From Haliotis cracherodii (lineage: Eukaryota): a stretch of 64,000 bases of DNA. Where the stretch lies: the NCBI RefSeq assembly GCF_022045235.1, contig NW_027266265.1, positions 36,456,001 through 36,520,000 on the forward strand, written 5' to 3'. The translations under genes were made by a program, and so were the position numbers. Of the stretch, positions 17,901 through 57,056 are shown in pieces. Position 1 is the first letter of the stretch, and the number at the start of each line of letters is the position of its first letter. The notes under the pieces are model-generated. The model had not been told where the DNA came from. It worked only from the letters and a program-made list of their open reading frames with translations, and ran no database searches.

Positions 17901-20900
17901 TCATCTTTGTCCGGCTGAACCCGATATGACGGCAAATAATGCTACAACCGTTGTCAACACTGGCATAGACGAGAGGCGGGATGAACTGTCGCAGACGCGA
18001 GTTTCGTCTGAATTATCAGCGCATTCGTCCACACCATTGCAGGCTAACGTCTTGGCTATGCAGAAGTTGTTGCTGCACTGGAAGGCGTCGTCGAAGCAGC
18101 TTCCTAAAAAACGAAGCAAACAAATTTTGGGCAATGGTCTTTTAACGCTAAAATGTGGTTAAGTATGCTAAAACTTATATTAGTTCACTATTATTTCCTG
18201 ATACTTTTTTTATTATAAAATACAACTTTGTGTTTTTACAAAGCAAAACAAATGGAAAAATGAGTTTAGATCAAAGGAACATTTGATTTTTCGATTTAAC
18301 TTTAATTTGTCCTTCCTTAGTATTTTATGCACACGTTAATACAGCATGTTGAATTTTGTACATATCTCAACCGAGACACGTCATAGCAAAGAGAGTTCAG
18401 GACAAATGTGTTAACAGAATAAAAAAAGATTATGTCGTAATCAGGCACAGTATTGCTGTTGTTGTTGTTGTTGTTAACGATGGTGTTGAACCAACACATT
18501 AACAAGCAGGTCATGTTTGAGTTTGAGGATGACAATGACGGTTTCATTTGGGACGTCATTTTGCCCATCAAAACCGATACCGCCTTGAATATTCTTGAAC
18601 AAAATTATAGCCCATCGCATCAGTGATATAAGAACCCAGATGTATATATCTTTAAACATATTTTATTAATAGTGGCCAATCGGCGATGTAGAAGTCCGCT
18701 AGAAAAATCCTCAAGTCACACATCGGCAGACAATTTCTAACTGGTTACCCTAAAACTGCAAACACCGACAAGCAGATGGTGAAGGATGACCGAAACACAG
18801 GTTATACACGTAGTGGCGTCTCCTGAGTCGAGGCTACTTATACATTGGCCTCAATTCACCCAGCAGTCAATGGGTACCCGGGAGTATGCGATGTAAACGT
18901 AAATGCAGTACCTTCCAGCGCAAAATAGACAGCTTGGATTGTATACTCCCCGGGGAACTGAGACTGCAAAATGAATGGACCCTGTTCCCTTGAGTCGTGT
19001 TACGTTTGAACAGCCGCTGTGTGGATAACGCGCTGTACAGGTGTGTACTGTCATTACCATTGTACCACAGAAGTAAACAGGGACTTACCAATAGGCCCTC
19101 GTTTGAGCGATGTCAGTATGATAGTGAAGGTAGCATCGGAGTCTATTGTGTCCGTGTCATACTGCAGAGCTATGGCTGGCACAGAGGTGTTGAACACCTT
19201 GGTGGCCAATCTAGAGCCGCACAATGTTCCTGTTGGGTGGAAAGTAGAACATATATAGAATAGTATAATTAGGAGATAAACATACTGTGTTTTCAATGTA
19301 GAGCTAGGTTACCTGTAGATTTCACCGCGCTTAATTGAATTTGGAACCGAACCGACTAAATAAAACGCGAACTCTTTGGTGTCAGCAAATATACTGAGTG
19401 AAGCGGCATGGGTTGAGTCCAGTGTTTTGAGTGGGTTCTCGATCTGAATTACGGAATCACCGAAGAAAATAAGGTGCTGTATATACTCAAGCAGTTTGTT
19501 TACACCGTAATACTTCACTCGAATATATGACAGGCATTGAAAGCATATAAAGCACGGCAACTTGGTAAGATAACATGAGGTGGGCATCCCTAAAGAAAAC
19601 AAAGCAAGCTTTGCAAGGCTTTCGCTCTACATCGCGCGTCACCATTATGACGTCATATCGCTCATTATGACGCAAAAGATATGACGTCACAGTCGTAAAT
19701 AGAAAAGGCTCACAATTCCAAGCTCTCTGTTGTCTCCAAAATGTAAATACATTCCCTTTGTTGATTTCTTTCTTGTTTTTTCTGCACGAAATGTATTGCC
19801 ACACATCCTTTGAATATTGTAGTAACCTCATCTTTGCATTTTGTAACCTGTAATTGTATATATAATTATTTAAATATGCCTACCGACAATGACTGAAAAT
19901 AGTACTATTCTATGATTATTAGCTTCCGCGGTGATGCGGCCGTCAAACCTGCTGTTTCACTCAGAGGGGGTTTATTGTGATTTAATAGCCTCTGATTGAC
20001 CAATCAGAATCGAGTAAATTCCAAATTTATGGCAGAATAATGATTTGTCGACGCCATGTTGCACTCAAGTTGACATAATGACGTCACAATATATATACGT
20101 CACAATATGACGTAATGTTTATACTTTTTGATCATGTGGAATATGGGTTTGTCAACGTTATGACGTCACCAATGATAACGTAGTGTGCAATAAGGTCAGA
20201 ATACTTATAATATCCTTGTGGACGCCAAGTTAACACTTCTCCTCTGGGCCCCGTTCCACAAAGCGATCATAGTGCTAAGTCAATCGTAATTCCCATGCTT
20301 TAACATAGACGTACGGCAGTCGTAGCGCTAAGATCGCTTTGAGGAACGGGACCCTGGACACTGTTTTCAATACTTCTTTACAACCGTTTTAAATGGAATG
20401 GATAACACAAAGGTTATAATGAAACTGACTTTACCAAACACGTAAGTCTGAAACACCATCTGTCGGCCAGCACTGGAAGGAATCCATATTAGTTTCGTTC
20501 ACGTGACTATCTCATAACAAACTTAATAAATACTGACATTTTGGCTGGTCTACATTTTTGTACTTCAGATCTATGTATTGACCAACTTGTATTTATCATA
20601 AATGGTTAATGTCATGGATGCGACAAACCAATCCGATAAACTTGAAACACGATCCGATGACTATTCAAATGAGGTCGCCAAGCATGTACTACTTTCAAGC
20701 TCAATACATCAATACATCTATTGACCGCCTCCGTGGTCTAGTGGTAGAGCGTCCGCCCGGAGAGCGGAAGGTCCGGGGTTCGATCCCCGCCCGCGTCATA
20801 CCAAAAGACGTTTAAAGATGGTACTTGTTGTTACCTTGTCTGGCGCTCGGCATTAATGGGCTAAAACAAGGACTGGTCGGCTCGGAGTCAGTGTACTGTG

Positions 20901-23502
20901 TCTGAGTAGGGTATTCATGTTAAACTGCGGCATGGTAACTCAGTGAGCATGCACTATAAATCGGTATCAGTCAGGACTAGTACAAATAGCCACACAAACA
21001 CACACCCGTACATGCACGTCGCTATATAAGTGCAATAATCTTGGACGCGACGTTAAACCCCATTTCACCTCACCTCTTTGTTCTATTGACTAACGTTCTC
21101 AAGATTGGGGTTTCACAATGTGTCGTCGGGGCGGTGGGGTCTAGTGGTTAGATGACATGGGTACAATGTGTGAAGCCCATTTCTGGTGTCTCCCGCCGTG
21201 ATAATGCTGGAATATTGCTAAAAAGCGGCGTAAAACCATACTCACTTACCTACTCATTCACCCAAGTCGTCACGATATGGCTGAAATATTGCCCATGTGA
21301 CGTTAAATAATAACTCACTCACTCACACATTCACCCAAGGACATACAATTGCAGAATAATAACAATTTACCGGATATTCGAGGCCCGAGCGGATCTACGA
21401 TCTCCAGCGTGGTGTTGCATTCCAAGGGGAGGCTGAAGGATGTGATGTCAATGAGGATGCCTAGCGCGTCTTCATCAGTCGCCACGTCCATATTGCACGA
21501 CGACGACAGATTCCCCCTCAGAATCATGCTATCGGAGAAGGAAAGTGTGTCGTCACAGTTGCTCTCCATGGCAACTGAAAAGAACTTGAGGTCAGGGCAT
21601 GGTGTTTATGCTTCGCGGAGAGATGGAGATTTTTAACAAAAATAATGCTTTGTGTTTTTTTGTATTTAAAACATTGCATGTAAAGGCGGCGTAAAACAAT
21701 ACTCACTCACACTTTACTAATTGAAATGGGGCACGGGTGGACCAGTCGTCTAAGGCGCCGCAATTCGCTGTGCAGAGTTGCGTCCCTTGGGCATGGTAGA
21801 ACCTTTGATTGTGGATTCGAATCCCGGTTCGCCCCCATTATGTTTCAAGGTTTGTCAGCACCATACCCGTGCTCGTGTGTTTCAACAAAGTGGTAAACGC
21901 CTGCGACCTGCATCACTTCAGGCTTTCCTCCCATATATAGCTGACAAGCCGTGATATAACTGGAATACTGTAAAAAAGCGGCGTTAAACCAAGCTCACTC
22001 ACTCACTATAAATTTTTTTTGTTATTTAGCGCCACACTCCAGCTACATGGTCCAGCTACATGACGCTATTCACCACGTCACCGAGCCTACCCATCTGATA
22101 TATGTAGTCGCCTCTTGCGACCAGCATAGTCTGTGGGATCTATTCTACCAAAGAAGCATAGGCATATGTAGATACTAGGACAATAAAAATCCGCTCTAAT
22201 CCGGCAGCATAGGCATCCGTAGGTACTTGGACAATAAAATGAGTGAGTATGGTTTTAAGCCGCTCTTAGCTCTACTCCAGCAATATCGCGACAGGGACAC
22301 CAGACATGGGCTTCACACTTGTTGGAAATCAAACCATAGGCGTGACGAGCGAACGTTTAACCACTAGCCTACCTATCCGCCCAATGAACGTGAGGCTGTT
22401 TGGTCAAGCGAAAACGATAACGATGAGATCCAATATAATGGACGCCCACCCTACCCACTTTCCAAAACATCAGACCGCCTCCGTGGTCTAGTGGTAGAGC
22501 TTCCGCCCGGAGAGCGGAAGGTCCGGGGTTCGATCCCCGGCCGCGTCATACTAAAAGACGTTAAAAGATGGTACTTGTTGTCACCCTGTCATATTGAATT
22601 TAGCAAATATTCTGGTTCAATTCGTGACGCTCTACGATCTAGTTACGATACAGGTACGATATAGTTACGAATATTCGTGGGATTCAGCTGGATTCGCTTG
22701 AATATTGTCAGGAATTCACTACGATTCACAAGAAGATATTAGGAATACTGCACGAAAGTTACGAATCAGTTACGAATCAGTTAAGAATACGCCGAATTGT
22801 ACCAATCAGGTACGAATAAAAATGAATTGGTGACTATTCTTGACAATTTTGGGGTGGGTTTTTCCCTCAAGATAGCTTCGGCGTGTATTCGTGGGATTCG
22901 TGACAGATTCGTAGCCGATTCGTCGTAAAGCCACGAATTCACGAATCCTCGAATGACTTATGAATACCTACGAATGCCTACGAACCGATTACGATTCAGT
23001 TACGATGCATAAGAATGCATTACGAATTTGTTACGAATTAACTACGATATTTTTTAATCGGGAGTTCGTGGCCAAAACTGTGAACAGCTCAAAACTTTTG
23101 CCACGAATTCCCCATAGCTCAAGGATAGTAAGAACTAACTACGAATATATGCGAATCAGTTAAAAATTTCACTGATTACGATTCAACTACGAATCCTAAA
23201 ATTTATCAATTCGTGGGATTCGTGGTCTGTGTGGAATAGTAGTATTCCTCAAATAAGCTCATGACCCTGGTAGACATTTTTACCTGACGAACAGACAGCC
23301 TCGTATCATCATTAAACTGCCGACGACCCGAGGCTGCCTGTTTGATCAGGTCAGAAAGGCTATTAGAAGTGGAATGTGGAAAGGGGAAGGTTAGGGGTCA
23401 CCAGGACGTCTGTGTATACTTACATGTCTCTGGTGTTTTGGCACCGCCGCTGGTCCATGTTGACATACACAGAGAGAGAAACACAACAGTATAGGAAGCC
23501 AT
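17901..23502 (-). CDS. Gene B: CUB-like + LDLa protein, 208 aa, GPI-signal-like C-terminus; exons 23502-23424, 21574-21371, 19229-19089, 18103-17901
   Basis: GT-AG, all phase 1. Signal peptide MASYTVVFLSLCMSTWTSGGA. CUB-like NCDDTL..CNMDV..ILIDITSFSL..CNTTLEIVD..GTLCGS..FTIILT. LDLa CFDDAFQCSNNFCIAKTLACNGVDECADNSDE..C. Ends SSSRLSSMPVLTTVVALFAVISGSAGQR*. Confidence 0.88.
18815..19060 (+). mobile_element. Old CORE-SINE-like fragment
   Basis: GGCCTCAATTCACCCAGCAGTCAATGGGTACC resembles the CORE domain; decayed L2-like tail. Confidence 0.4.
20247..20353. mobile_element. PIF/Harbinger-type MITE (107 bp); decayed relatives near 5436-5540, 10405-10500, 35080-35185
   Basis: TIRs GGCCCCGTTCCACAAAGCGATC / GATCGCTTTGAGGAACGGGACC with CTG on both flanks. 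Confidence 0.7.
20723..21075 (+). mobile_element. SINE family B, full length
   Basis: Consensus match to 2697-3047. Confidence 0.88.
21728..22007 (+). mobile_element. SINE family C
   Basis: Consensus match. Confidence 0.85.
22590..23245. mobile_element. TTACGA/TCGT-rich degenerate element (probable non-autonomous DNA transposon) abutting a truncated family B SINE (22472-22590)
   Basis: Dozens of dispersed TTACGA(A/T) and ATTCGT motifs; class not determined. Confidence 0.45.
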
Positions 23503-25968: not shown

Positions 25969-26289
25969 CTCTATACAAATTCCCCCACCCAGCATCCCAA
26001 TAACAAATGGCCGGTTTCTTAGTCGGATTAACGATTCAGAAGGAGTATTTTCCTTTTGGCTATGTCGAGTTCCCAAAAGGAATCGTTCGGAATGTGAGGC
26101 TTCCTGTTTAACAAGATGTCACTGTGTATGCAACTTCGTAGTGATCAGGGGGGAATGTTGAACAGTCATGATCTATGTGTAAGTGAGGCCAAAATACATC
26201 ACAACTCTGATAACATTTGTACTCTTAAGGCAAGGCAATAGTAATCAATTTCAATATTATCCTTCCAACGGTACTGTCAAGCCGGAAAG

Positions 26290-27152
26290 TCAGTATAAAT
26301 TCATCTTGACAACAATCGATGCCGTAGTTAGGCCGACAATACACATCTGTGTTAGTGGGGAAGTAGCAGGCGGAGATGCCGATGTCGGTCTCGGCGGGGA
26401 CAGGGTAGACGAAGGAGTCGATGTCGAGGCAGAAGTTGCTGCCGAGGAAGAAGCTGCTGTCGAAGAAGAAACAGATACCGATGTCGGTTTTGGCGATGAC
26501 AGAGTTGACGAAGAAGTAGATATCGAGGCAGAAGCTGCTGTCGAGGAAGAAGTTGCTGTCGAGGACGAAGAAGATGTCGAGGAAGAAGTAGGTGTCGAGG
26601 AAGTAGAAGATGTCGAGAACGGTGTTGATTGACAAACAGCTGTTTCATCGGAATTATCAGAACACTCGTTGTAGGTATTGCAGACCAAATCCTTTGGGAT
26701 GCACAGCTTGTTGTCACACTGGAAGTCAAGCTGCGAACACGACCCTGGAAGACATAAGCAACACTTCTCTGTCATACAAGAATGAGAGCCTTAAAATATA
26801 AAGCACCTCATGGGGGATGAAACAGGGGCCAAAGGTTTACAAGCGAGTGTATGTCATTGCACGCCGCAACCAGCTATACCAAGGGGATCCGTAAATAATC
26901 GAGTTTGGACCAGACAAACCAGTGATTGATGACGCCGTCGGGATACGTCGCGATCAACAAATCACCGAGCCGGACTTCCCAGAGTCACCTCTTGCGAAAC
27001 TCAACACAGTGGTCGGGACCTGGACCCGCACGTGCCCAAAACAAACGTTACGACGACCGCAAGTCCAATGCTTTAACCCAGAGGTGAAGGTGAGGTGAAA
27101 TTGGGTTGAACGTCGCGTCCAAGATTATTGCACTTATATAGCGACGTGCATG

Positions 27153-27187
<35 letters not shown>

Positions 27188-29116
27188 TGCTAGCTCACTG
27201 AGATACCATGCCGCAGTTTAACATGAATACCCTACTCAGACACAGTATACTGACTCCGAACCGACCAGTCCTTGTTTTAGCCCCTTAATGCCGAGCGCCA
27301 GACAGGGTAACAACAAGTTCCATCTTTTAACGTCTTTTGGTATGACGCGGTCGGGGATCGAACCCCGGTCGGGGATCGAACCCCGAACCTTCCGCTCCCC
27401 GGGCGGACGCTCTACCACTAGACCACGGAGGCGGTACTTTAACCCAGACGTACGATGGTCGTAATGCTAAGATCGTTGTGTGCTCAGTGGGCTCAGTCTC
27501 AGCGAGGTGATTTGTTGAATGAATGTAATGTGAATGAAATACGCCTACCATGGATGAAGTTATTATATTTTTTAGAATAACAATACTCACTATTTTAATT
27601 AAAGTGCTAAAGAGACACATTCTAACCTGGGCCACCACGGTTAGCAGATCGTAACATAAGTGATGAAAATAGGACTTTAATACACACCTTCAATCCCCAT
27701 GTTGAACGCAGTCATGGTGATTGACAATGATTTCCCCTCAGTGTTTGGAGAGTTACTTTTGTAATCAAATTGAGCAAAGTTGCCCGGCGCTTTGAAGACT
27801 TGGGCGTTATCCTCCTTGCATAGAGGACCTGTATCATAAAGCAACAGGTCATTATTATTCATCAAATGTTTTATAAAGTACAAATTTCGTTTTTTAAGTG
27901 TTGATGTGAACAATTTGAAGAGCAACATAATGAGTTTTCAGGATACCAGTATATGTAACGGTATTGTAATGAATTCAGAGGTAAAGCTGAACCCACGAGT
28001 ACGGAAACTGTGTTAACAAATCTAGGATCATATTGAGGGCGAATTTAGGACTCAAATAATGATCGCAGGATCCTTGCACAAATAAGGGACGTCACTCTGC
28101 TCAGAACGTTCATGTAGCGTGGTTGACTGAGCCAAACACTCTGACCATGTATAATCACAAGTACAGAATTCAGAAATAGATTCTGACCAATTGACCTGCC
28201 TTTGCATGTGTTTGTGACAGTTGCCACCGGTAGGACAGGTTACGCTCACCTTTTCGCGAACACCTGGTGTCGTCACTATTTCAGAAACACATGCTCATGA
28301 TAAAGTTGGAATCGTACAATCAACTCTTTTTATGAATATGGGAAGGTGTTTGCCGTTTTCATTTGAAGTTAGAACTCTCCTTACCTGCAATACTGTTTCC
28401 ATTTCCATCTAGGATGTCCAGGCTGGTGTTGTTGCAGCTGTCCACGAGGTCTAACACGGTGATGTCGATGAGGAGCCTTTCGTTTTCCACGTTGCTCTGA
28501 ATGACGAGGTTACATTCCTCCACTGAACGCAGGTCTGAGGCGAGCAATATCACGCTCTCGGAAAAACTCATGGTACTATCACAGTTCTCTTCCAACACCC
28601 CTGAAAACACGTGAAGTAAATATATGTTGCTGGTTGACAAATACGCTTTATGTTTCATGACATACTTAAGAGTGCAATATACTAAACTTAGAGTCACGAT
28701 CTGATAAATATGCAAATGAGTTCCCCTAGCACGAAATAAGTTCCATACATCGATTGGTCCGTTAATTATAACATAACGTCCCTTGTAGGTTTAGATAGAG
28801 GATTGACAATATTGGAGGCCAATTGATTAAGTAGTTTCTATTCCATATACATGTATATGATGAGAAATGTATTTATCAGTGTCTAAAAAATACATATATC
28901 AAGGTCTTCGCGCAGTGTGATATACACGTAAGATGATGTAGGTTGTTAGATATATCCCAGACGGTGTTTTGGTCTATATGAAACAGAAACTATAGACAAC
29001 TATGATTGTCAGCACAACACAGCACCACACTTACATTGCTCTGGTGTTTTTGTACACACGGATCCGATAGAAACAATTGCAATGAAGAGGAGGAAAATTT
29101 CACAACACGACGCCAT
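26290..29116 (-). CDS. Gene C: CUB-like + LDLa + Ser/Thr-rich stalk, 297 aa, GPI-signal-like C-terminus; exons 29116-29035, 28600-28385, 27828-27688, 26744-26290
   Basis: GT-AG, all phase 1; start context CAAGATGGCG. Signal peptide MASCCEIFLLFIAIVSIGSVC. LDLa CSQLDFQCDNKLCIPKDLVCNTYNECSDNSDETAVC. About 90-aa S/T/A/P tract, then MCIVGLTTASIVVKMNLY*. Confidence 0.88.
27083..27436 (-). mobile_element. SINE family B in intron 3 of gene C
   Basis: TSD CTTTAACCCAGA; absent at the paralogous site of gene D (~35125-35150). Confidence 0.9.
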
Positions 29117-29513
29117 CTTGGAAACAGGAGATAACATCTGGGACAGAGTGTTACAGATTCAGGGTCGGCGATACATCTCTCATATCAAGTGACTGTGTTC
29201 ATATATCAGGTTGTTACCAATATGTACTTACTACCAGCAATGAATAAGGGATCTATCTGCTGATTTGAAAGCGGCTATCGTTGAGGTGTACATATACAAT
29301 ACCGTGGCGTTGCATCTAATCGCAATGTCCAAATACAATGAAATTTCACATCGTGTATGAAAAACATATAATGCACGTGCACACTGAAGCTAAACTGTTT
29401 GCGCAGGTAGGGAACTAATACAACTGAGCTAAGCACACGCTTAAAAATGCCTCCGAGACAGTTTCTCAATGACCAGACAAAATGGCGGAGTGTGGGTACG
29501 ATAGATGGGGGAC

Positions 29514-30374
29514 TAGTGGTGTAACGATACATCGAACTATCGATTGATTGCGATTGCGTGTCTCACGATAGTACACTATCGATTGCAACTTGAAACAATC
29601 GATACTATTGACGATTGTCTAACTATCGATAGTTTCGATAGTTAATTTGTTTTGTACATTTACTTTCTTAAAAAACATAGAAACAACTCCTATGATCATC
29701 TAACCTCTGTCGTGCTTTCGTTTGGATTGCACTACTTTGTCTGCTTGATTTAGAGTTACGTCCCTTAGCTACTCGTCGCTAGGCAACATTGACAAGTTGG
29801 CGGACGCCACATATCAGTTAAAATTGTCGCCAATAAGGCAGGCAAATCGTGGTTATGGGACCATTTTGGCTTTGTCAAAACGGAAAACGAGACAGACAAG
29901 CAAAAAGTAAGTTGTAGAATCTGTCGGATAATTCTAAAGTATTCAGGAAATCTAATCTGACCGACCACTTGACAAGACGGCACCCAGATATTCGTCCACG
30001 TGAAAAAGGGGGATCAAATACTAGTCATTCTATCACATTCATACACATTGGTGCTAAAACACTGCAGTAACCTAAGACTTTACCAGTTACATGAAGTGAA
30101 TTTTTTTATTAAAATGTTTTTGAGAGGTCAATTTGAACTTGTTTTCTTTTCATTTCTTGTTTTCTTTACACATAGTATCAGAAAGTTATAATTAGTTTGA
30201 TGGTGTCAGTCAAAATGCTGAAATATATGCTGCTAAAGCCTGCTATAATTGCAAGTGAAAACTATCGCAATAGTATCGCAATAGTAGGGCCACTATCGCA
30301 ATAGTATCGCAATAGTTGTTTTAACTATCGCAGTAGTATCGCAATAGTAAAAAATGCCTCAATAGTCACCCCTA
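29514..30374 (+). mobile_element. Internally deleted hAT transposon with a BED zinc-finger remnant
   Basis: Ends TAGTGGTG / CACCCCTA; perfect 8-bp TSD TGGGGGAC (29506-29513 / 30375-30382); subterminal TATCGAT/TATCGCAATAG repeats; from 29841 GKSWLWDHFGFVK..KVSCRICRIILKYSGN/SNLTDHLTRRHP (one frameshift). Confidence 0.88.
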
Positions 30375-30486
30375 TGGGGGACGTCAATATTTCAACTTGC
30401 CCAAACGTTTGGTTAATCAGAAAGTGAAATTCCTCGACTGTGTGGTAGGTACCCTCAAACGGGCGAGGTTGCAATGAGATCTGGGC

Positions 30487-30770
30487 GTGGCAGGCCTTAA
30501 AACATTATTGCAATACGCCATTGATTTCAATCTGCTCCTGTTATCAATATGTGTCATGGTGTGGGGCGGCGTCACACATGGCAGGCGAACTGATTTGCTT
30601 ATTGTGAATGGACATTATACTGGCCAGCGATATGTTGACGAAAGTTTTCCTCCCTCGTTGTTCCATTCGCTGGAGTTATCAGCCGAAATTGTGAACAGCG
30701 AAAAAGCACATCGTGCCCAGCTCGTCGCCGATTATCGTCGACGCGTTGGGCATACGGACTTCCGTCTGGC
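30487..30770 (+). mobile_element. Tc1 transposase fragment
   Basis: VMVWGGVTHGRRTDLLIVNGHYTGQRYVDE; later AHRAQLVADY. Confidence 0.75.
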
Positions 30771-31810
30771 GAGGATTGGCAAAATCTAAACAAGGTAATT
30801 TGGTCAAGAAGTAACTTAAGCTTTAGTTATATTGATGATCTGATATCGTTCAATAACAATCAAATAGCTAATTTCCCTCCACTGATTTACCCACCTAAAC
30901 TAGAAATAAAGTGACCAATCGGACCTCCTCATCTGTTTCATATTTAGATCTGGCCGACTCCGTGGTCTAGAGGTGGAGCGTCCGCCCGGAGAGCGGAAGG
31001 TCCGGGGTTCGATCCCCGACCGCGTCACACCAAAAGACGTTAAAAGACGGTACTTGTTGTTACCCTGTCTGGCGCTCGGCATTAATGGGCTAAAACAAGG
31101 ACTGGTCGGCTCGGAGTCAGTATACTGTGTCTGAGTGGGGTATTCATGTTAAACTGCGGCATGGTATCTCAGTGAGCTAGCACTATAAATGGGCATCAGT
31201 CCGGACTAGTACAAGCAAACACACACACACGTACATGCACGTCGCTATATAAGTGTAATAATCTTGGACGCGACGTTAAACCAAATTTCACCTCACCACA
31301 CCTATGCATAATGATTCAGAGTGACAAATCACTCTCCACAAGACTGTATGATGAGAGGGATGACTCCTATCCTATAGTCAACCTTCCCTTCACGTCGTGC
31401 AATATTCCAGCAGCTCCAGCCTTTGGTGTTTACATTTCACAACTTTTGAAATACAATCGAGCGGGCTCTTTCTACCAAGGAGCACGGGCATCAGAAGTTG
31501 TTTGATCAGGGTTAAAACACTCAAGGCCTCAGTAAAGCTTTCAAAAAGCGTTATGGTAGACATGTGGAGGACTTTTCCAAATTTGACGCATCAGTGACAA
31601 AAATGATGTCCGATGCAATTCCCTATTTTGACTTGTACCATACATGTCTGTTCCCGTGTTGTTTCATGTGAACAACTGACTAGCCTTTGCATGTGTTTGT
31701 GGCAGGTGCCACCGGCTGTTCAGGATACGCTCACCTTTTCGCGAACACCTGGTATCATTACTATTTTTTAGTGTTTCTTGAACACGTGCTCATGATATAC
31801 TCAGAATCGT
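30770..31810 (+). mobile_element. Penelope-like element 3' fragment (RT catalytic region to 3' end), interrupted by a family B SINE (30951-31303)
   Basis: YIDD at 30828-30839; STRLYDERDD..PIVNLPF..NIPAAPAFGVYISQL; conserved 3' motif at ~31688-31765. Confidence 0.8.
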
Positions 31811-32177
31811 GCTGAGATTTCTACTGGATATGGAATGGGTTTTGTGGCTTTATTTATTTGATCTTATCTAGTTTGTATTATCATCATCGCCTTGATAATC
31901 CATATACTTGGCGGAAACCTTTTTGTGTAAGGTCACATTAGTTATGAGTAGTAAGCAGTACGTCGGATGACGTCACTCATGGCCGTCATGTTATGTAATA
32001 ATGCGCCACTGCAATCATGAGAATAGAGAGAATGCATCGATTCGATGCTAAAGTGATCCGCTATTACTGCACTCACACTACAGGCTACAATTTCTCTTAC
32101 AACTTGTTTTTCCACTGTTCGCTGTAAGATAAATGGTATCTGACAGACACTCGTGTATTAATCTTTACATAACGGGT

Positions 32178-32457
32178 GGGCACGGGGGGCCCAGTCGTCT
32201 AAGGAGCCGCGATTCGCTGTGCAAAGTTGCGTCACTTGGGCACGCCAGAAACCTTTGTTTGTGGGTTCGAATCCCGGTTCGCCCCGATTATATTTCTAGG
32301 TTTGTCAGCACCATACCCATGCCCGTGGGTTTCACCGAAGTGGTAAACGTCTGAGACCTGCATCACTTCGGGCTTTCCTCCTACATATAAGCTGACACGC
32401 CGCGATATAACTGGAATACTGTTAAATGCGGCGTTAAACCCAACTCACTCACTCACT
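32178..32457 (+). mobile_element. SINE family C
   Basis: Near-consensus copy. Confidence 0.88.
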
Positions 32458-32784
32458 CTAAATGACGCACCCCATGATAGTGTTACTTCTGCCACGTACT
32501 TATCTTAAATATAATTAAGGAAGTAATGGCGTAACAAGGTCATAGGCGGACCATATGGGATAGAACATAAGACTATTGTATGTGGAGCCTTGAGTGAGTG
32601 AGTGAGTGAGTGAGTGAGTGAGTGAGTTGAGTTTAACATGTATAGGATATACCATATTTAATTATGAATAATGTGTAAGTTTTGTTATTTCATCAGATCA
32701 GACGGATTCTAACCAGGGAACTATGTACCTTCAAGCCGACGAGGCATGACATATGTCTCTTCGTCTTATTGCTGTAATACAAAG

Positions 32785-33315
32785 TTTGTTTGTTTGTTTT
32801 TTTCTTTGTTGTTTCCCGCCGCACTCAGCAATATTCCAGCTATATGACGGCGGTCTGTAAATAATCGAGTTTGGACCAGACAATCCAGTGATTGACATCA
32901 TGAGCATCGGTCTACGCAACTGGGATACGATGACAAGCACCAACCAAGTCAGCGAGCCTGACTACCTGGTCACGTTAGTCGCCTCTTACGACAAGCATAG
33001 TCGCCTTTTACGACAAGGAAGATACATATGTCGACGGAAGATACTCCAAGCCTTATGTATTTCAAAAACTAGTGATAGCGATAAGGGCTTCATTCAGATT
33101 GTCCCGGAATAAAACGAGTGGTCCCTAATGGTATTTATAAATGTATCACGTTAACTACAGTGACCATCTACATATAAAAATGTATAATACAAACATGCAT
33201 CAACCAAGTCAGCGAGTCTGACCACCCGATCCCGTTAGTCGCCTCTTACGACAAGCATAGTTGTCTTTTACGGCAAGCATGGGTTGCTGCAGACCTTCCC
33301 CGGATCTTCACGGGT
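32785..33315 (-). mobile_element. Family D copies (32785-33015 and 33193-33315)
   Basis: Reverse-complement consensus matches. Confidence 0.8.
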
Positions 33316-33488
33316 CCTCTAATACAAAGTAGACCAGTTAATTATTTTAATTAGAATATAGCATCGAAAGGCATACTGTCATATATTAGCGGCCACAGAT
33401 GCATGCTGGTAATCATCAATCTGACAAAATCTTGCATTCATCCTGTTGCAGAATCCTCTGGAACATAAGCTTTATTTAAAACGGTTAC

Positions 33489-36400
33489 TCAATTAACGCT
33501 GTCATATCCCCGATGGTGCCTAAGTCTCCTAGTCAGACACAATGCTGCCACTGCGACCGCCAACAAACAAGCGAATGTCACACCAACTATAAGTCCCGCG
33601 TTTTCTCCCAGAGGGGTGTAGTCGGGGCCGTTGCAGTCATTCTCATCTGAGTTATCAGAACACTCGTTGTATCCATTGCACAATAAGTCTTTGGGTATGC
33701 ACAGATTGTTGGCGCACTGGTACTCAATCGAAGCACATTTCCCTGAAACAAAAACAACCAAGACACTTTATGAAATGTGCCAATAGATAAACAGGTTTTT
33801 GACTTTGATAATATTACTGGTTTACTTACTGTTTAAATTGTTTACAATTCGGTCCCCGAAATAAGCATCTGTCAATGCACAGTATGGCCTATTCTTGGTG
33901 AAGAATAATTGTAGAGGAAGAATGTTTCTTTCTCAGAATATGCACACTATGGCCTATTCTGTCTTGGTGAAGAATAATTGTAGAGGAAGAATGTTTCTTT
34001 CTCAGAATATGCACACTATGGCCTATTCTGTTTTGGTGAAGAATAATTGTAGAGGAAGAATGTTTCTTTCTCATAATATGCACACTATGGCCTATTCTGT
34101 CTTTGTGATGAATAATTGTAGAGGAAGAATGTTTCTTTCTCATAATATGCACAGTATGGCCTATTCAGTCTTGGTCAAGAATAATTGTAGAGGAAGAATG
34201 CTTAATTCTCATAATATGCACAGTACGGCCTATTCAGTCTTGGTGAAGAATTATTGTAGAGGAAGAATGTTTCTTTCTCATAAATGCACAGTATGGCCTA
34301 TTCAGTCTTGGTGAAGAATAATTGTAGAGGAAGAATGTCTCTTTCTCATAAAATGCACAGTATGGCCTATTCAGTCTTGGTGAAGAATAATTGTAGAGGA
34401 AGAATGCTTCTTTCTCAGAATATGCACACTATGGCCTATTCAGTCTTGGTGAAGAATAATTGTAGAGGAAGAATGTTTCTTTCTCAGAACATGCACACTA
34501 TGGCCTATTCTGTCTTGGTGAAGAATAATTGTAGAGGAAGAATGTTTCTCATAATATGCACAGTATGGCCTATTCTGTCTTGGTGAAGAATAATTGTAGA
34601 GGAAGAATGTTTCTTTCTCAGAACATGCACAGTATGGCCTATTCTGTCTTGATGAAGAATAATTGTAGAGGAAGAATGTTTCATCCTCATAATATGCACA
34701 GTATGGCCTATTCTTGAAGAAGAATAATTGTAAAGGAAGAATGTTTCTTTCTCAGAATTAATGACGATAAAGCAACATAATGTGAATTTGTAGTGCCGGA
34801 TGTTTTGTCTGAAGGGACCGGAAGTGTAAAAATATATACATTTGGAACATTTACTTAATATATTGTTGCTGTGTTATGATGCTGTTTCGTTCTTGTTGAC
34901 ATGTGCCTGGTATTAATTATTATTTGGTGCACAGAAGGGAACGTTATGTGTGGTCTCCATAGTGATATGTGGTCTCTGGCAGTATCTAGTACTTTCATCA
35001 AAATAGACATCTTACATGGATAAAAACATCATTAGTAAATGGAATATCTCTTGCGAAACGCAATACAGTGCTGGAGACCTGTGTCCACCTGCTCAAAGCA
35101 AACGCTACGACGATCGTAACTCCAATACTTTAACATTGACTTAAGATAGTCGTAACGTTAAGATCGTTGTGTGCGAGTGGGTCCCGCCTTAGCCTGGTGA
35201 TTTGTTGAATGAAAGAATGAAATGCGCTAAAGGTGGATGAGTGAGTGAGTTGGGTTTAAGGCCGCTTTTAACACTATTCCAGTTATATCGTAGCGTGTCA
35301 GCTTAATGTAGGATGAAAGCCCGAAGTGATGCAGGTCTCAGACGTTTGCAACTTCGGTCTATCGTGGATGAAGGATTTATACTTTTTACAATACAAATAA
35401 ACAATATTTTAATTAAAGTGCAACAGAGACACATTCTTACCTGAGTCACATCGGTTAGCAGATCGTAACACAAGTAATGAAAATATGACAACTTTGATAC
35501 AAACCTTCAATCCCCATGTTGAACGCAGTGATGAGGATCGACAATGATTTCCCCTTAGTTTTCGGAGAGTCACTTTTGTAATCAAATTGAGCATAGTTGC
35601 CCGGTGCTTTGAAGACTTGGGCGTTATCCTCCTTACATAGAGGACCTGTATCATGAAGCAACATGTCATTATTATTCATCAAATGTTTTACAAAGAACAA
35701 ATTTCGTTTGAGTTATTAATGTGAACAATTTGAAGAGCACCAGACTAGCAAGGGGCGCGACTGAGGGACGTTTCTGCACCAAACACTCTGACCATGTATA
35801 ATCACAATCATCACTCATTTTTGACAAGTACAGAAATTAGAAATTCTGGCCAATTGACCTGCCTTTGCATGTGTTTCTGACGGGTGGCACCGGTGGGACA
35901 TGATACGTCGACCTTTTCGCGAACACCTGGTGCCGTCACTATTTGATAGTGATTCAAAAACACATGATCGTGTTAAAGTCAGAATCGTACAATCGATTGC
36001 ATTTGGCAGAATCTGAATAATATGTAAAGAGGTTTGTCGATTTCATTTGAAATTAAAACTCTCCATACCTGCAATGCTGTTTCCATTTTCATCTAGGATG
36101 TCCAGACTGGTGTTGCTGCAGCTGTCCACGAGGTCTAACACGGTGATGTCGATGAGGAGCCTTTCGTTTTCCAAGCTGCTCTGAATGACGAGGTTACATT
36201 GCTCCACTGAACGCAGGTTTGAGGCAAACAGTATCACGCTCTCGGAAAAGGGCATGGTACTGTCACAGTTCTCTTCCAGCACAACTGAAAACACGTGAAG
36301 AGAATATCTATTGGTGTTCGTCAAATACGCTCTATATTTCATCGTATGGTTCATCACATACTGCAGAGTGTTTGTGCAATATACTTATCCGATAAACTTA

Positions 36401-36830
36401 GAGTCACGATCTGATACATATGCAAATGAGTTCCCCAAGCACGAAATAAGTTTCATTCATCGATTGGTCCCTAAATTATTGCATAAGGTTCCTTGTAGGT
36501 TTCGATAGAGGTTTGACAATAATGGAGACCAATTGATTAAGTAGTTTCTATTCCATACATATGTATATGATGAGAAAGGTATTTATCAGTGTCTAAAAAA
36601 AACATGTATCAAGGTCTTCGCGCAGTGTGATATACATTATGACGTAAGATGAAGTAGGTGGGTGGAAATATCTAAGACGGTGTTTTGGTGTATATGAAAC
36701 AGAAACTATAGACAACTAGACGGGAGTAGACAGCACCATACTTACATTGGTCTGGTGTTGATTGAGGCCACACGGATCCGGTAGAAATAAGTGCAATGAA
36801 CAAGAGGAGGGTCCTACAACATGACGCCAT
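33489..36830 (-). CDS. Gene D: CUB-like + LDLa + TM type I membrane protein, 231 aa; exons 36830-36746, 36284-36069, 35645-35505, 33742-33489
   Basis: GT-AG, all phase 1. Signal peptide MASCCRTLLLFIALISTGSVWP. LDLa CASIEYQCANNLCIPKDLLCNGYNECSDNSDENDC. TM AGLIVGVTFACLLAVAVAALCL. Tail RRLRHHRGYDSVN*. Confidence 0.9.
33876..34760. repeat. 69-bp minisatellite (~13 copies) in intron 3 of gene D
   Basis: Unit ATGCACA(C/G)TATGGCCTATTCTGTCTTGGTGAAGAATAATTGTAGAGGAAGAATGTTTCTTTCTCA(G/T)AAT. Confidence 0.95.
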
Positions 36831-36993
36831 CTTGGACAGAGATAACATCTTCGACAATGTGTATCAGATACATGGGTCGGCGATACAGCCAAATGACTGT
36901 GTTGATATAGTAGGTTGTTATCGGTATGGTTAAATTTTCTTAATTATACACATGTGATGCATGTCTTTTCACGAAGATATGTTATCCTTACAG

Positions 36994-37292
36994 TAGTGAG
37001 TGAGTGAGTGAGTGAGTGAGTGAGTTGGGTTTAACGCCGCTTTTAACAGTATTCCAGTTATATCGCGGCGTGTCAGCTTAATGTGGGATGAAAGCCCGAA
37101 ATGATGCAAGACTCAGACGTTTACCACTTCGGTGAAACCCACGAGCACGGGTATGGTGCTGACAAACCTAGAAACATATTTGGGGAAAACCGGGATTCGA
37201 ACCCACAATCATAGGTTTCTGGCGTGCCCAAGGGACGCAACTCTGCATAGCCATTCGCGGCGCCCGTAGACGACTGGGCCACCCGTGCCCCC
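36994..37292 (-). mobile_element. SINE family C
   Basis: Reverse-complement consensus with long (GAGT)n tail. Confidence 0.88.
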
Positions 37293-37365
37293 TCCTCACA
37301 GTTGTGATTCATAAGTACCTTTATACCCATGACGCATTATTTTCACACACGCACGCACGCACGCA

Positions 37366-38300
37366 CAAACTGCCGACCAAAAGAAACTTTGCCACTTTAA
37401 AAATGAAATTGCAAAAATTAAAAAAAAAAAAGTTCGACCAGGATCAATTCAAAACACATCGTCAAAACACAACAATGCCCTATGCAGAAAGTGACACACG
37501 TTCACGGGATGTTTTTTTGCCGAAAATGCGAAGAGGTGAAAGACGTGCCGCTTGGGCAGCCAAAACTACACGTGCAATAAGGGTATGTAAATGATACAGA
37601 CGGTATGGCAAGTCAGACACACACACTGATAAGAAAGCATCACAAAAATGCCACGACTGACACCCGAACACCGCGAGCGGGCCCTGGGTAGGATACAGAT
37701 TGTAGCCACCCATGCCCATATTGCTAGAACCTTTGGTTGCTCCCGTGTTGCTGTAACTTACCTGATGCAACGTTACAGACAGACCGGACAGACATCAGAC
37801 ATGCCAAGAACAGGCAGACCCAGTACGCCCAATAAAGACCGGTACTTGCGTACTTTGCATCTCTGGAATCGATTCCTGACAGTGATGACATCAGCGACGG
37901 ATGCCTCCAGGCATATGCTTACTCGACAGGCAGTGGCCAGGGCTACAGGAGTTAGGGCTTACAGACCTACCAGAGGACTATTATTGCCAGTGCAACATCT
38001 TCTTCACAGATAAAAGCCACTTCTGTCAGTTAAGAGCTGATGGAAGATAGCGAGTTTACCGCCGAAGGGAAGAACGAACGGCGGCATGTTGTGTTCAGGT
38101 GGTCGTGCCGTATGGTGTTATGGTGTGGGGATAGATTTGTAGGCAGGAGCGAACACCACTGGTCATCGTTAACGGACATTTGACAGCTCAGTGTTGCATG
38201 GATGACGTTCTTCGTCCGATTGTCCGACCATTTCTATAGCAGCTGCCACGTAGTGTCCTTTATCAGCATGACAACGCCAGACTCCCTACAGCCCGTTTGT
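37366..38300 (+). mobile_element. Decayed Tc1 transposon (transposase pseudogene from 37648)
   Basis: MPRLTPEHRERALG..IARTFGCSR..RYRQTGQTSDMPRTGRP (paired HTH, GRP motif); VMVWG..LVIVNGHLTAQ..DDVLRPIV..YQHDNAR; stops and deletions. Confidence 0.85.
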
Positions 38301-52307: not shown

Positions 52308-55300
52308 TCAGTCAATAGGTAAATATGACCCACGTCTGTTCCTTGCTCGGTGTATTTTGACGGCGAAGACACAAACAACAGCTAACAGAAACACCCCACA
52401 ACATACAGACACAATAACAACTTTCTTCACCAGCTGGTTGCCTTCAGTCGCATTACAGCCTATCGTCTCGTCCGAATTATCGGAGCAGTCATCGAAGCTG
52501 TTGCAGGTCATGTCGCTGTCTATGCAGAGTGAGTTACTGCACGTGAAGTCATAAGACGTACACGCCCCTGCAACAAAGATATCCTCTTAGGCGACTCTGG
52601 TGTTAAGGGTTTTGGTTTGGGATTGGTTTGTTGCTTAACGCCGCACTCAGCCATATTCCAGCTGTATGACGGCGGCTGTAAATAATCGAGTCTGGACCAG
52701 ACAATCCAGTGATTGGTATCATGAGCATCGATCCACGCAATTTGGATCGATTACGTGCATCAACCAAGTCAGGGAGCCTGACCACCCGATCCCGTTAGTC
52801 GCCTCTTACGACAAGCATAGTCGTCTTTTACAGCAAGAATGGGTTGCTGAAGACCTATTCTACCCCGGATCTTCAAGGGTCCCACGCAATTGGGATCGAT
52901 GACATGCATCAACCAAGTCAGCGAGCCTGACCACACGATCCCGTTAGTCGCCTCTTACAACAAGAACAGCCGTCTTTTACAGCAAGGGTGAGTTGCTGAA
53001 GGCCTATTCTACCCCGGATCTTCACGGGTGTAAGTGCACGAGCGTTCTGTAGCACTTACCATTGATCTGTTCGTGAAAGGACGTGATAAGTAAAGTGAAG
53101 ACATCCTGAGAAGCCTCATGCTCGCCACGGTTGGAATGGTACCAAACTCCCACTGACTGACCGCTGGAGTTGAAGACAGGAGTTGTTATGTTGGTACCAC
53201 ATAGACGTTCTTGAAGAAAGAATAAAAAAAAAGAAGAAATAATTATCACAAATGTCATAAAAACTACAATTATATATTAATTATGGTGGATAACGTGAAA
53301 TGTCTACATATATGTAGCGCTCCAGTGAGCTAGGATGAGGGTCAAAAGAAAATATACCCAGTTTGTTTTTTATGTAATTGAAAATTGAAGAATTGTTGTT
53401 AAATTTTATTATATTTGTTTAATCATCACTCATTCCTGCAAAAGTTTACAAAAAGTAATCTGTGGCTGGGTAATTTTGTGTAAACAAATTAGCTTAGTGA
53501 AAATCGGAGTAAGGTATGAATTTGCAACCACATGACCCCAACCATCTTGAAATGTAAATTTGTGTCAAAAAAAGGTAATTTGTTGATTATAAAAGATAAG
53601 ATGTCTAAGATACCCATCGACAGCTGTGTATCAAGTCATTTTTAAAAAGTTAAACGAATTATTTTTCAAATTATATAAAAAAGAAATAAAACCACGTAGA
53701 ATATTCTTTGAGTGCTGACTAAGCGCCAGTACAGTGTTTTTTTGTGTGGATATTTTCAATTGAAAAGCAAACATATAATAAAGTCAACTGAAGCCATAGT
53801 TTCTCTCGCCCCTCAGTTTGTTTGGGTTTAACGCAGCTTTAAACATGGTTTCAAACACGGTGCACAAGAGATGCAGTTTTTAGGCATTTTCGACTTTCGT
53901 GAAACCCACTGGTCTCGGATTTGATGTCTGATTTCAGGCACATGAAATGATTCCTGAACGACATGGTGAACAACATGGATTACACGTGCATACTATGTCA
54001 GAGGGGTACTCAAAGAACGTGATCTAGACTACCAGTTGTCGGACTTTCATTTTTTGTGGACGCCTCGGTGGCTGAGTGGGTTAGATCGCTGACTTTGTGT
54101 GCTGGCGATTAGGTGCCTCACTCTGGCAAGTGTGGGTTCGAATCCCGGACGGGACTCAACCCCCCCCCCCCCGCAATAAAAGAAAAAAAAAGAAAAAAAA
54201 AAGGTACGGGCATCTGTACTTTATTAAGAAAGTGTTATCCCACATATAACATTTGTTACATACTATAATTGATGAAAATATATGATTTACACAATACATA
54301 AATTGTTTGTTTGTCTTTAATTCCCTACTCGTGTATAGTAGTTCTGCTATATAACGTGTGCTGAACCACACATTCTACAACGTCGGGGTGCGATGACACG
54401 CAATCAACAAAGTAACATTGACTGAGAGGATTTTTATGAATTGTCTGAGTTTCCCATCTCCCGCCCGCCCTGAATATCCATTCCGGCGTAAAACATTACA
54501 AAGTTTTCATATCTCAATTTTCCCCGCCGCTGTGGAAACCGATGCTCCGATATGAAAGTTACTACTGCAACTGCACAATCATACAAAAACTAGGTCAGCT
54601 TGAAATTGCTTCAGCTATATCTATTAAATAGTGGCTTCCAAAGAACAGCGACTCGATCTTCGTCGTAAATTAATTTGAATAAAAGCGAAAAAATCATTTC
54701 GCTATATTTGCATATTACGAAATCTCGATTGTACGATTCTGACTATATCAAGAGCATGTGTTTATGATTCACTATCAAATAGTAATGATACAAGGTGTTC
54801 GCGAAAAGGTGAGCCCCACCTGTGGCACCCGTCACAAACACATGCAAAAGCAAGTCAGGTAAGAAGTCCTCCTTTTCGTACACTCACTCACATGGCGGCA
54901 TGAGGTTTTCACATCTGATTCAATTCAATAGAGTGAATCATTGTAGAATCACAACCAATATACCGGAACTTTCTACCTGTACATAGTAGATATATAAGTT
55001 CATCTATAATCATCGTTAACAAGTGACACATGATCCAAGTTAACATAGGGAATTATATCAGACATCATTTTTGTCACTGGTGAGTCACATTTGGAAATGG
55101 GACCCGTGAAGATCCGGCGTACAGTAGGTCTTCAGCAACCCATGCTTGGCGTAAAAGGCGACTATGCTTGTTGTAAGAGGCGACTAACGGGATCGGATGG
55201 TCAGGCTCGCTGACTTGGTTGATGCATGTCATCGATCCCAATTGCGTGCATCAATGCTCATGATGTCAATCACTGAACTGTCTGATCCAGACTCGATTAT

Positions 55301-57056
55301 TTACAGACCGCCATCATATAACTGGAATATGGCTGAGTGCGGCGTTAAACAACAAACAAACAAACAAAAACATTTGGAAATGTCCTCCACTTTTTGGAAG
55401 CTTTACTGTAAACTTGAAGTCTTGGTAGAAAGAGTATGCTCGAGTTATGAAATGTAGACACCAAGGACTCAAGTTGCAAGAATATTGCTCCAAAGTTGAA
55501 GTCATCTCTCTTGTCATATAGTCTTGTGGGGAATATTTGGTTACTAACTGGTACTTTAAAATGTCCTAAAACAAGTCACACGATTAGTAAAAAATGTCTT
55601 TATAAAATTTATTGTTTTTTCTTACTTCTCCCACCCGCTCTCTTGCTGGTGAGGATGGAGATGACAAACACATAAAAAACACGGATGCCTTACCGAATAC
55701 AATAGCTATCTCATAAAATATCTTGTGGAATCCCCACGGAGCCGAACGAAAAGAAACACGTGTGTAATAGGTATGATTCTGTGGCCATCCCAGTCTCACC
55801 TGAAGCATGTTTGCCCTCAATCTGAGACACATGGACGCCGGCTTTCGAGCAATCTGGATAGCCGGGGATGTCAATACTCAGGAGGCGAACTAACAACCGA
55901 TTGCCGTCAACGTCACTTTCAACCAACGTCTTACAACTCTCTTGTTTCTTCCTGGTCTTGTTGACGGATAGTTTGAGAAGCATATCTTCCGAAATAATGA
56001 TCGTATTGCCACATTCTTCAGAAAGCTCAACTGAAAGGATAAAGGATACAGACACTCACCATTGAAACGTCTCCTTCTAAGTCAGCGATGTAAGAAAATA
56101 AGAACGGTATAATATTGTCTTCGAGTGAGTGAGTGAGTTTGGTTTAACGTCGCTTTGAACAGTATTCTAGTTATGTCGAGGCGTGTCAGCTTAATGTGGG
56201 AGGAAAGCCCGAAGTGATGCCGGTCTCAGACGATTACCACTTATTGAAACCCACGAGCACGGGTATGGTGCTGACAAACCTAGAAACAGTATAAAGCCGA
56301 ACCGGTGTACGCGCCCACAAGCATAGGTTCCTGGTGTGCTCAAGGGACGCAAATCCACCTGTGCCCCCGTTTATCTTCGAAGGCATACAGGATAATCAAA
56401 AAAGACAAAGGATGTTGCGCAAAGGATAAAGCAAACATGGCAAAGGATAAAACATAAGTGATAAAGCATAACATATCAACACAAAAGATGAAACATACAT
56501 ATATAGAATGTAGGATAAAGTGTGAAGCATAAACGCCCTGATAAGGAATATAACAGTCACAATTACCCTTACAGATAAATAAAAAAATATTAGCCGATAT
56601 ATGCAGCGTCGTAAATGTGATACTTTAGGAGTCAAATTTGTTATCCAATCGTTGCTTTTCCTGTCTAGGGAGGCAGTGGGGTAGCCTCGTGGATAAAGCG
56701 TTCACTTGCACGCCGGAGACCCGGGTTCGATTCCCCTCTTTGGTACAATGTGTGAAGCCGATTTCTGGTGTCCCCCGCCATGATATGGCTGGAACATGGC
56801 TAAAAGTGGCGGAAAACCATACTCACTAAAACCGATATAATGTCATAACGTACTTACATGACATATTATTTACTCCACTGGGCTAACGAATTGTATTATC
56901 AAGTATACCAATCCTTCGGTTTTAGTGTAAACATAAATACACCACTAAATTAAGGCAAAACAAGTACTTACATGTCTTTGGTGTGTTCTTTTGAGCCTGA
57001 CTGACCCCACGTGTGCCTATCATTACCAGCAAAATAATATTAACATAAAGCTCCAT
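52308..57056 (-). CDS. Gene F: CUB-like + LDLa + TM type I membrane protein, 241 aa; exons 57056-56972, 56030-55800, 53209-53060, 52567-52308
   Basis: GT-AG, all phase 1. Signal peptide MELYVNIILLVMIGTRGVSQA. ECGNTI..SCKTLV..NRLLVRLLSIDIP..DCSK..RLCGTN..FTLLITSF. LDLa CTSYDFTCSNSLCIDSDMTCNSFDDCSDNSDETIGC. TM VVIVSVCCGVFLLAVVCVFAV. Tail RARNRRGSYLPID*. Confidence 0.88.
52615..53029 (-). mobile_element. Family D, 1.5 tandem copies filling intron 3 of gene F
   Basis: Two heads, at ~52880 and ~53029. Confidence 0.85.
54058..54160 (+). pseudogene. Isolated tRNA-derived head (SINE of a fifth family, or tRNA pseudogene)
   Basis: GGTGGCTGAGTGG A box and GGGTTCGAATCCC B box with a long spacer; no clean cloverleaf; followed by a C-run and an A-rich tract. 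Confidence 0.5.
54780..55530 (-). mobile_element. Penelope-like 3' fragment interrupted by a full-length family D copy (55101-55369, +)
   Basis: Minus strand TRLYDKRDDFNF..GVYIS; 3' motif at 54790-54850; D copy has TSD ACATTTGGAAATG. Region 54790-55018 is also homologous to 46940-47163. Confidence 0.75.
56124..56369 (-). mobile_element. SINE family C
   Basis: Reverse-complement consensus match. Confidence 0.8.

Follow-up and report, generated by a model that had tools for sequence, protein, structure and literature searches.

A chimeric CUB-LDLa gene between its two parents in a tandem cluster of Haliotis cracherodii: mosaic structure and likely origin by a single duplication

In a 64,000-nucleotide stretch of the Haliotis cracherodii genome (assembly GCF_022045235.1, contig NW_027266265.1, positions 36,456,001 to 36,520,000; hereafter the window, to which all positions refer), we have analyzed a cluster of six paralogous genes predicted to encode membrane-bound CUB-LDLa proteins. 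Gene D of this cluster is a chimera: its exons 1-3 are of the type of its downstream neighbor, gene C, and its exon 4 is of the type of its upstream neighbor, gene E. The chimera is real, old and intact. We consider it likely, with modest confidence, that D arose by one tandem duplication reaching from intron 3 of E to intron 3 of C, and its product is predicted to carry a C-like CUB domain on the LDLa module, transmembrane helix and tyrosine-bearing tail of E. A sequence-only reading of the same stretch had proposed such a C(exons 1-3)/E(exon 4) chimera placed between its parents, and site counts, trees and gene order bear this out.

In exons 2-3 of D, 91 informative sites are C-type and 13 are E-type. 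For the LDLa-encoding portion of exon 4 the corresponding counts are 1 and 31 (p 4e-19). Over this LDLa part D differs from E at 3/113 nucleotides and from C at 32/112. Counted in whole codons, the amino acid differences between C and D amount to 8/71 in exon 2 and 6/46 in exon 3, and those between D and E to 25/71, 18/46 and, in exon 4, 9/82; the earlier hand counts agree with these values after split codons are included. Separate trees of the two partitions (exons 2-3; LDLa) are incongruent, each partition rejecting the tree of the other at the nucleotide level (approximately unbiased (AU) test, p 0.020 and 0.022). When the LDLa test is restricted to protein, a grouping of C with D is not rejected (p 0.097), in contrast to the nucleotide result (p 0.022). 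Synonymous divergence (dS) between D and E drops from 1.05 in exons 2-3 to 0.07 in exon 4, which excludes plain conservation of the E exon, the objection that the sequence-only reading had raised against itself. C and E, on the other hand, are evenly diverged across exons (nonsynonymous divergence, dN, 0.24 in exons 2-3 and 0.22 in LDLa), and in H. rufescens, H. asinina and H. rubra both parts of the E protein are E-type. D is therefore the recombinant, and C and E are its unmixed parents. All three genes lie on the minus strand in the order E-D-C, with D between both intact parents.

The last exons of C and D had been described as unlike each other. This holds for the mucin part of C, where homology is absent, but not for the first ~110 nt of the C exon, which encode an LDLa module of its own (80% identity with D over 85 nt). 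Since C exon 4 begins with this module and the LDLa of D is E-type, only the CUB domain is shared with C. The claim that C and D present nearly the same ectodomain thus applies to CUB (14/118 residues different) and fails for LDLa (11/34).

The chimera is not confined to the window. The annotated H. rufescens protein P0006 combines a C-type CUB domain with an E-type last exon and carries, in each half, residues specific to D. In a tree of exon 4, the D proteins of the window and of H. rufescens form a clade with a support of 96/97. In addition, we aligned 4 of the 22 listed public sequencing runs, over positions 26200-33870. All four, coded as four organisms, contain both D exon 4, followed by its own 3' flank, and the stalk-bearing exon 4 of C. 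Base states were read from the run differences listed, 40 of 758. No listed run is recorded as RNA; X6, X15 and X16 are RNA by our guess and served for presence and base states, not as proof of expression. The split of black and red abalone is dated to 4.3 million years (My) ago and that of the east and west Pacific species to 36.4 My, as given in PMC11704959. Because H. rufescens has the same chimera, the misassembly considered in the sequence-only reading is excluded and the chimera is older than ~4.3 My. D exon 4 shows 9-15 differences from eastern and 20-22 from western E proteins, and because it is closer to the eastern ones, an origin between the two splits is suggested, although the upper bound of 36.4 My is soft (AU p 0.108). 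Protein searches returned only E-type proteins for H. asinina and H. rubra, neither D-type nor C-type, and no C-type protein from any species other than H. cracherodii. As evidence of absence this is weak, since the searches missed C too, while C exon 4 is present in the runs of other organisms. A metagenome scan with E exon 2 gave 594 pattern matches, none of them confirmed, and our literature searches found no published work on this locus, while a broader one on chimeric genes of molluscs listed a single general review.

The C-like tract comprises about 100-110 bp of shared 5' flank, exons 1-3, introns 1 and 2 and the beginning of intron 3. For intron 1 the alignment spans 429 bases (of 434 and 461 bp) with 11% mismatch, most of intron 2 of D aligns with 13% mismatch, and intron 3 up to 35048 with 17-20% mismatch, so that the introns of C and D keep 82-89% identity. 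The C-like sequence ends at 35048 (position 26989 in C), close to the previously claimed ~35047/~26985. The E-like block 33495-33780 corresponds to 42672-42956 of E (286 bp, 92.3% identity), includes 38 bp of intron common to D and E, and continues as short remnants to ~33820; the motif that had been quoted as the resumption of E-like sequence lies at 33759-33780, and not at ~33790. Between the tracts lies an interval that resembles neither parent and contains a tandem array of ~880 bp (33875-34754, 69 bp x 12.9, Tandem Repeats Finder). Introns 3 of C and E both contain copies of a short interspersed nuclear element (SINE) in the same orientation, 78% alike, and the C remnant is no closer to the copy in E than to other copies. 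A crossover between these SINEs was considered on account of a 15-base match between C and E that looked diagnostic; the C remnant turned out to be a different decayed copy, closer to other copies, no feature connects the SINEs with the event, and this route is a mere possibility. A SINE in C intron 3 (27081-27434) has a clean 10-bp target-site duplication and is absent from D, which carries a SINE piece of its own at 35238-35358 in intron 3. Both were inserted after C and D separated and could serve as markers in other species.

We regard a crossover origin of D as likely, not proven. Gene order, polarity and the gain of a gene are what one duplication would produce, by analogy with the human receptor gene FCGR2C (PMC6563257), and the two halves of D are equally diverged from their respective parents (18/251 vs. 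29/357 nt, p 0.76). The junction would lie in intron 3 and would have formed via interspersed repeats or without homology, because the introns of the parents do not align. The reading frame would have been kept by the phase-1 introns. Likeness of the spacers and of the 3' flank would later have been lost by repeat insertion and deletion, probably on the E side at the stop codon, and some gene conversion between D and C, perhaps also between D and E, would have followed.

A number of observations weigh against this origin. Duplicated spacers and an E-type 3' flank behind D, as a single duplication predicts, are missing. D resembles E over no more than 286 bp, the likeness reaching just to the stop codon, and the 171-bp 3' flank of D finds no match in the E-D spacer or in the whole window. 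Depth arithmetic suggests that E-type contigs end near 33495 in two other organisms as well. The spacers share only ~100 bp, and two collinear copies of an intergenic module are absent. Apart from interspersed repeats, the introns of C and E have no sequence in common for a crossover, and the crossover site is not placed; the breakpoint interval has been overwritten. The sequence-only reading had inferred unequal crossover between adjacent paralogues; order and polarity fit this, but the unalignable 3' flank and spacers and the missing intron homology leave it short of being established. The silent sites of exon 4 add to the difficulty. Judged by the 40 of 758 run differences listed, the runs of three other organisms read the E-type base at the four silent differences between D and E (whole codons), and these differences therefore look recent in the lineage of the window. 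Before speciation there was ~0-1 synonymous difference between D and E in 61 sites, whereas ~5 are expected at the age of the C/D introns, a deficit with p about 0.01-0.04 at assumed rates of 8-10%. Exon 4 thus looks younger, or later converted, the C/D introns not being near-identical likewise, and the silent pattern suggests that D and E underwent conversion afterwards or that exon 4 was transferred at a later time. Finally, the splice of exon 3 to exon 4 in D is predicted from intact splice sites, an open frame and the annotations of two species, and the aligned run region included exon 4 and not exon 3, with no contig joining them.

Tiling the D-C spacer (29 x 150 bp) against the E-D spacer gave a promoter-proximal tile as the only strong same-strand non-repeat match, and one further tile just above the shuffle maximum (41 vs. 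38) is a transposon remnant, 66% alike; the earlier caveat that no homology is visible between the two spacers holds. In a DNA run, however, depth over the D-C spacer ranges from 77 to >1,000,000 in 16/16 bins (29272 to 33367), as opposed to 8-33 in repeat-free exon and intron bins. The missing likeness of the spacers therefore carries little weight: nearly the whole D-C spacer consists of repeats, with little old unique sequence left, and the E flank begins with a repeat fragment at the stop codon. This repeat at the stop of E is an inner fragment, as deletion of an old untranslated region would leave. The 3' flank of D is covered by contigs of 4/4 aligned runs. Against the mucin exon or the 3' flank of C it scores 23 (shuffle mean 24), and one weak AT-rich match, 1 kb below the C stop, was reached by 2/100 shuffles.

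Alternatively, D may have been formed in two steps, by duplication of a whole C-type gene followed by replacement of its exon 4 with a copy of E exon 4 through conversion or templated repair (~290-330 bp). This is possible, though we hold it to be rather unlikely. A short E-type tract ending at the stop codon fits it well, as does the apparent youth of this tract relative to the C/D introns, with its 0-1 synonymous difference before speciation; an 81-bp identical run between D and E is longer than expected in permutations (p 0.02), and no duplicated spacer is required. In globins, conversion can produce a mosaic of this kind, and it is by the flanks that it is told apart from crossover in that family (PMC4041002). 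The 3' flank of D, however, matches neither the mucin exon nor the 3' flank of C. Moreover, donor and acceptor would have been only 71% alike in LDLa, with no homology in the mucin part or at the 3' end, two events would be needed for an order that one event gives, and the overall divergence of both halves is equal.

An unlikely further alternative is that D is older, an old chimera or a third paralogue, and that repeated conversion has kept its halves like C and E, in which case neither half dates its origin. Hints of exchange do exist. Position 28528/36212 has an identical base in C and D of the window, another base being read there by all contigs of the three other runs, and at 2/8 differences between the D proteins of the two species C and D of the window share a residue where H. 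rufescens D keeps that of all four E proteins. These three sites, one nucleotide and two amino acid positions, hint at C/D conversion after speciation. A tree placing the four E exon-4 proteins together and apart from D is not rejected (AU p 0.108), and spacers without likeness would fit a greater age. Yet the likeness of C and D spans the introns at a steady 11-18% mismatch, with separate SINE insertions and no patches of identity; the longest identical runs are not significant in exon 2 (p 0.057) or exon 3 (p 0.72). The D exon-4 sequences of the two species group with each other (96/97), with no sign of D/E exchange since speciation. That no D-type protein was found for H. asinina and H. rubra counts weakly, C having been missed too. 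Positive selection on D exon 4 was also considered, given ~10 replacement vs. 0-1 silent changes before speciation, and was set aside as the sites are too few to claim it.

It is very improbable that D is an ordinary duplicate of C in which E exon 4 is merely conserved while C gained a new exon 4. The mucin stalk of C is indeed unique in the cluster, but the fall in D/E dS between exons 2-3 and exon 4, the 38 bp of common intron, the even divergence of C and E across exons, and the presence of C exon 4 with its stalk in 4/4 runs all speak against it. That reads resembling C and E were falsely joined over the tandem array of the breakpoint interval is scarcely conceivable. H. rufescens P0006 has the same join and, on either side of it, the same residues specific to D; moreover, 7-8% of sites in D are different from both parents, and 4/4 runs contain its exon 4 together with the 3' flank peculiar to D.

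The proteins of the cluster share a layout of signal peptide, CUB, LDLa and membrane anchor. LDLa (PF00057) scores above the Pfam cut-off in 5/5 proteins scanned, whereas CUB appears only below the cut-off and in 1/5. The CUB assignment rests on a structure model, confident over residues 30-150, with one CUB of 118 aa; its best fold matches are a spermadhesin CUB (E 4e-8, TM 0.85 by target), neuropilin and Neto2, and in the Atlas the closest clusters consist of CUB+LDLa proteins, with molluscs making up most of one cluster. A single transmembrane helix (mean hydropathy 2.75-3.13 over 19 residues) is present in D, E and F, and behind it a short basic tail containing a tyrosine motif. In B and C the hydrophobic C-terminus is shorter (hydropathy 1.85 for B, 1.34 for C), and there is no tail. 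In C it follows a stalk of 91 aa, 67% Ser/Thr, and consists of a 13-residue hydrophobic stretch 5 residues from the end. Glycosylphosphatidylinositol (GPI)-anchored proteins have a C-terminal signal that is cleaved off, with a small residue as attachment site. A Ser/Thr stalk with a C-terminal hydrophobic stretch fits the pattern of such a signal, and a GPI anchor of C is probable, as predicted from the hydropathy pattern alone. The tail of D contains a single YxxV, with Arg at position -2 relative to the Tyr, and its helix is free of charged residues. A YxxV tail is an internalization motif; the motifs of paired receptors are, by consensus, an immunoreceptor tyrosine-based inhibition motif (ITIM) opposed to an activation motif (ITAM) or a charged transmembrane residue.

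D is predicted to bind C-type partners via CUB, to sit near the membrane and to be internalized through its YxxV tail, whereas in C a long, glycosylated stalk, probably GPI-anchored, would hold CUB away from the membrane. The working mode of D may be likened to that of the CUB-LDLa trafficking and accessory proteins CULD and NETO. We further put forward, as a speculation that we ourselves find doubtful, that conversion maintains the match between C and D as a pair of mollusc receptors, C being a tall sheddable GPI/mucin decoy or capture form and D a short endocytic form sharing the CUB ligand site; D would then be a bridge, its 5' half co-evolving with C and its 3' half having co-evolved with E.

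The closest known parallel is human FCGR2C, which consists of a 5' part of FCGR2B and a 3' part of FCGR2A (PMC6563257). As in D, a chimeric receptor gene stands between kept parents, with the outer domain from the downstream and the tail from the upstream parent. The crossover behind FCGR2C is, however, proven by two collinear 80-kb modules of 94% identity (PMC6563257), while the spacers around D are unalignable, a further point against a single duplication. FCGR2C also has Ig domains and ITAM/ITIM tails, whereas D is CUB-LDLa without ITAM and switches parents inside the ectodomain, between CUB and LDLa. D therefore works like FCGR2C but is not classed as a proven crossover product. The anti-Lepore HBB/HBD fusions of mammals show the same geometry and the same doubt between crossover and conversion, and are likewise fixed and common to several species; they are classed by 5' flank, intron and 3' flank, as described in PMC4041002, whereas the 3' flank of D matches neither parent, and in D the swap changes the membrane anchor. 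In architecture D resembles Drosophila CULD and NETO1/2 with their signal peptide, CUB, LDLa and one transmembrane helix (PMC4732287), in line with the fold and profile matches to Neto2. It differs from NETO, which has two CUB domains (PMC4732287), by its one CUB, its 12-14 residue tail, its tandem cluster of six and the two anchor types found there. Paired receptors that conversion keeps alike, such as Siglec-11/16 (PMC5701461), are likewise neighboring genes with a near-identical ligand-binding domain and different anchors, and for C and D, too, there are hints of conversion. C and D differ from them in having no opposing activating and inhibitory motifs, and C has no cytosolic tail.

The class of mechanism is already known from globin and Fc-receptor genes, and this case, on whose locus our literature searches found no publication, is new: a membrane protein formed in a mollusc by a one-exon swap between tandem neighbors and intact for >4 My together with both parents. 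A binding domain was joined to a different anchor in one step, as in ape FCGR2C. Should one ligand be common to C and D, these genes and E would be a small natural test of GPI vs. transmembrane anchoring for a CUB-LDLa protein, in a family of which few members have been studied. Positions are collected in Table 1.

Table 1. Gene D, its parents and the surrounding features in window coordinates
Feature	Position	Strand	Remarks
Gene D	exons 36830-36746, 36284-36069, 35645-35505, 33742-33489	-	231 aa
D exon 1, signal peptide, C-type	36746..36830	-	nt differences 17/82 vs. C, 30/81 vs. E
D exon 2, first part of CUB, C-type	36069..36284	-	nt differences 18/216 vs. C, 61 vs. E; CUB fold
D exon 3, second part of CUB, C-type	35505..35645	-	nt differences 11/141 vs. 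C, 46 vs. E
D exon 4, LDLa, transmembrane helix and basic tail ending YxxV, E-type	33489..33742	-	18/251 nt vs. E; Pfam PF00057; hydropathy
D tract homologous to C (~110 bp of 5'-flanking DNA, exons 1-3 with introns 1-2, beginning of intron 3)	35048..36950	-	
D tract homologous to E (last 40-80 bp of intron 3, exon 4 to stop codon)	33495..33820	-	
Breakpoint interval, neither parent	33821..35047	.	matches to intron 3 of C or E do not exceed shuffles
Gene C, 5' parent	26290..29116; exons 29116-29035, 28600-28385, 27828-27688, 26744-26290	-	297 aa
Gene E, 3' parent	42669..47576; exons 47576-47492, 45471-45256, 44391-44251, 42919-42669	-	230 aa
D-specific 3' flank	33318..33488	-	AATAAA 13 nt after stop; matches neither E nor C 3' flank
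Dispersed-repeat fragment starting at E stop codon	42614..42671	-	alignment with 5/5 copies tested, every one scoring higher than 300/300 shuffles
D-C spacer, derived from repeats over nearly its whole length	29117..33317	.	DNA-run depth; zf-BED remnant
E-D spacer	36831..42668	.	direct-orientation sharing with D-C spacer only at 36839-36928, besides interspersed repeats
Gene B, distant paralogue, outgroup	17901..23502	-	short hydrophobic C-terminus (GPI-signal-like, predicted)
Gene F, distant paralogue, outgroup	52308..57056	-	transmembrane helix and tyrosine-bearing tail

Within the cluster, B, C, D, E and F lie on the minus strand; G, of which the window contains a part, has the opposite orientation. 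The genes have in common four exons and phase-1 introns, with the signal peptide first, CUB over two exons, and LDLa with the anchor last; all introns of C, D and E are GT..AG and phase 1. The proteins of the window are identical to H. cracherodii entries, D from residue 39 with P0001, C with P0002 except for 7 extra N-terminal residues, and E with P0008. The E isoform P0007 lacks, through an alternative acceptor, the 14 residues with which exon 2 begins in P0008, and with them the first CUB cysteine. The sixth paralogue, G (60663-62720, plus strand), stands head to head with F, and only its exons 1-2 were recognised in the window. A search of representative proteins gave mostly multi-LDLa matches; the one useful match was P0117, an H. 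rubra relative of G, which is 74% identical to G exon 2 and whose accession adjoins that of the H. rubra E-type protein. Outside the cluster, a gene A (14735-15284, minus strand, and 9300-11600) has a signal peptide and a 183-codon first exon with a weak CBM_6 match below the cut-off, and candidate exons were seen by eye near 11530-11620, 10510-10700 and 9350-9520.

At the 3' end of E, the stop codon may be borrowed from the dispersed-repeat fragment that starts there (42614-42671). The C-termini of E-type tails vary, D having one extra residue and H. rubra five; such changed C-termini would alter a C-terminal PDZ-type motif.

Both spacers hold decayed transposase remnants on the same strand (37642-38360 and 30521-30781, 66% alike), which we take to be Tc1/mariner-like, Pfam giving only weak helix-turn-helix matches; they were considered as duplicates of a spacer and rejected as too distant. 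An inverted match of 30773-31474 with 39676-39377 was likewise rejected as a duplicated module, being a high-copy repeat. A zf-BED remnant lies at 29793-29957. An inverted 419-bp copy (90%) of a SINE with its flank links the E-D spacer (39583-40001) with E intron 3 (43122-43537), and an element with inverted ends below the E stop (41986-42530) recurs inverted in E intron 1 (45954-46325, 90%). Further intronic or intergenic tandem arrays occupy 1-645, 951-2116, 48468-49157 and 62717-63378, with units, including that of the D array, of ~54, 65, 69 and 45 bp.

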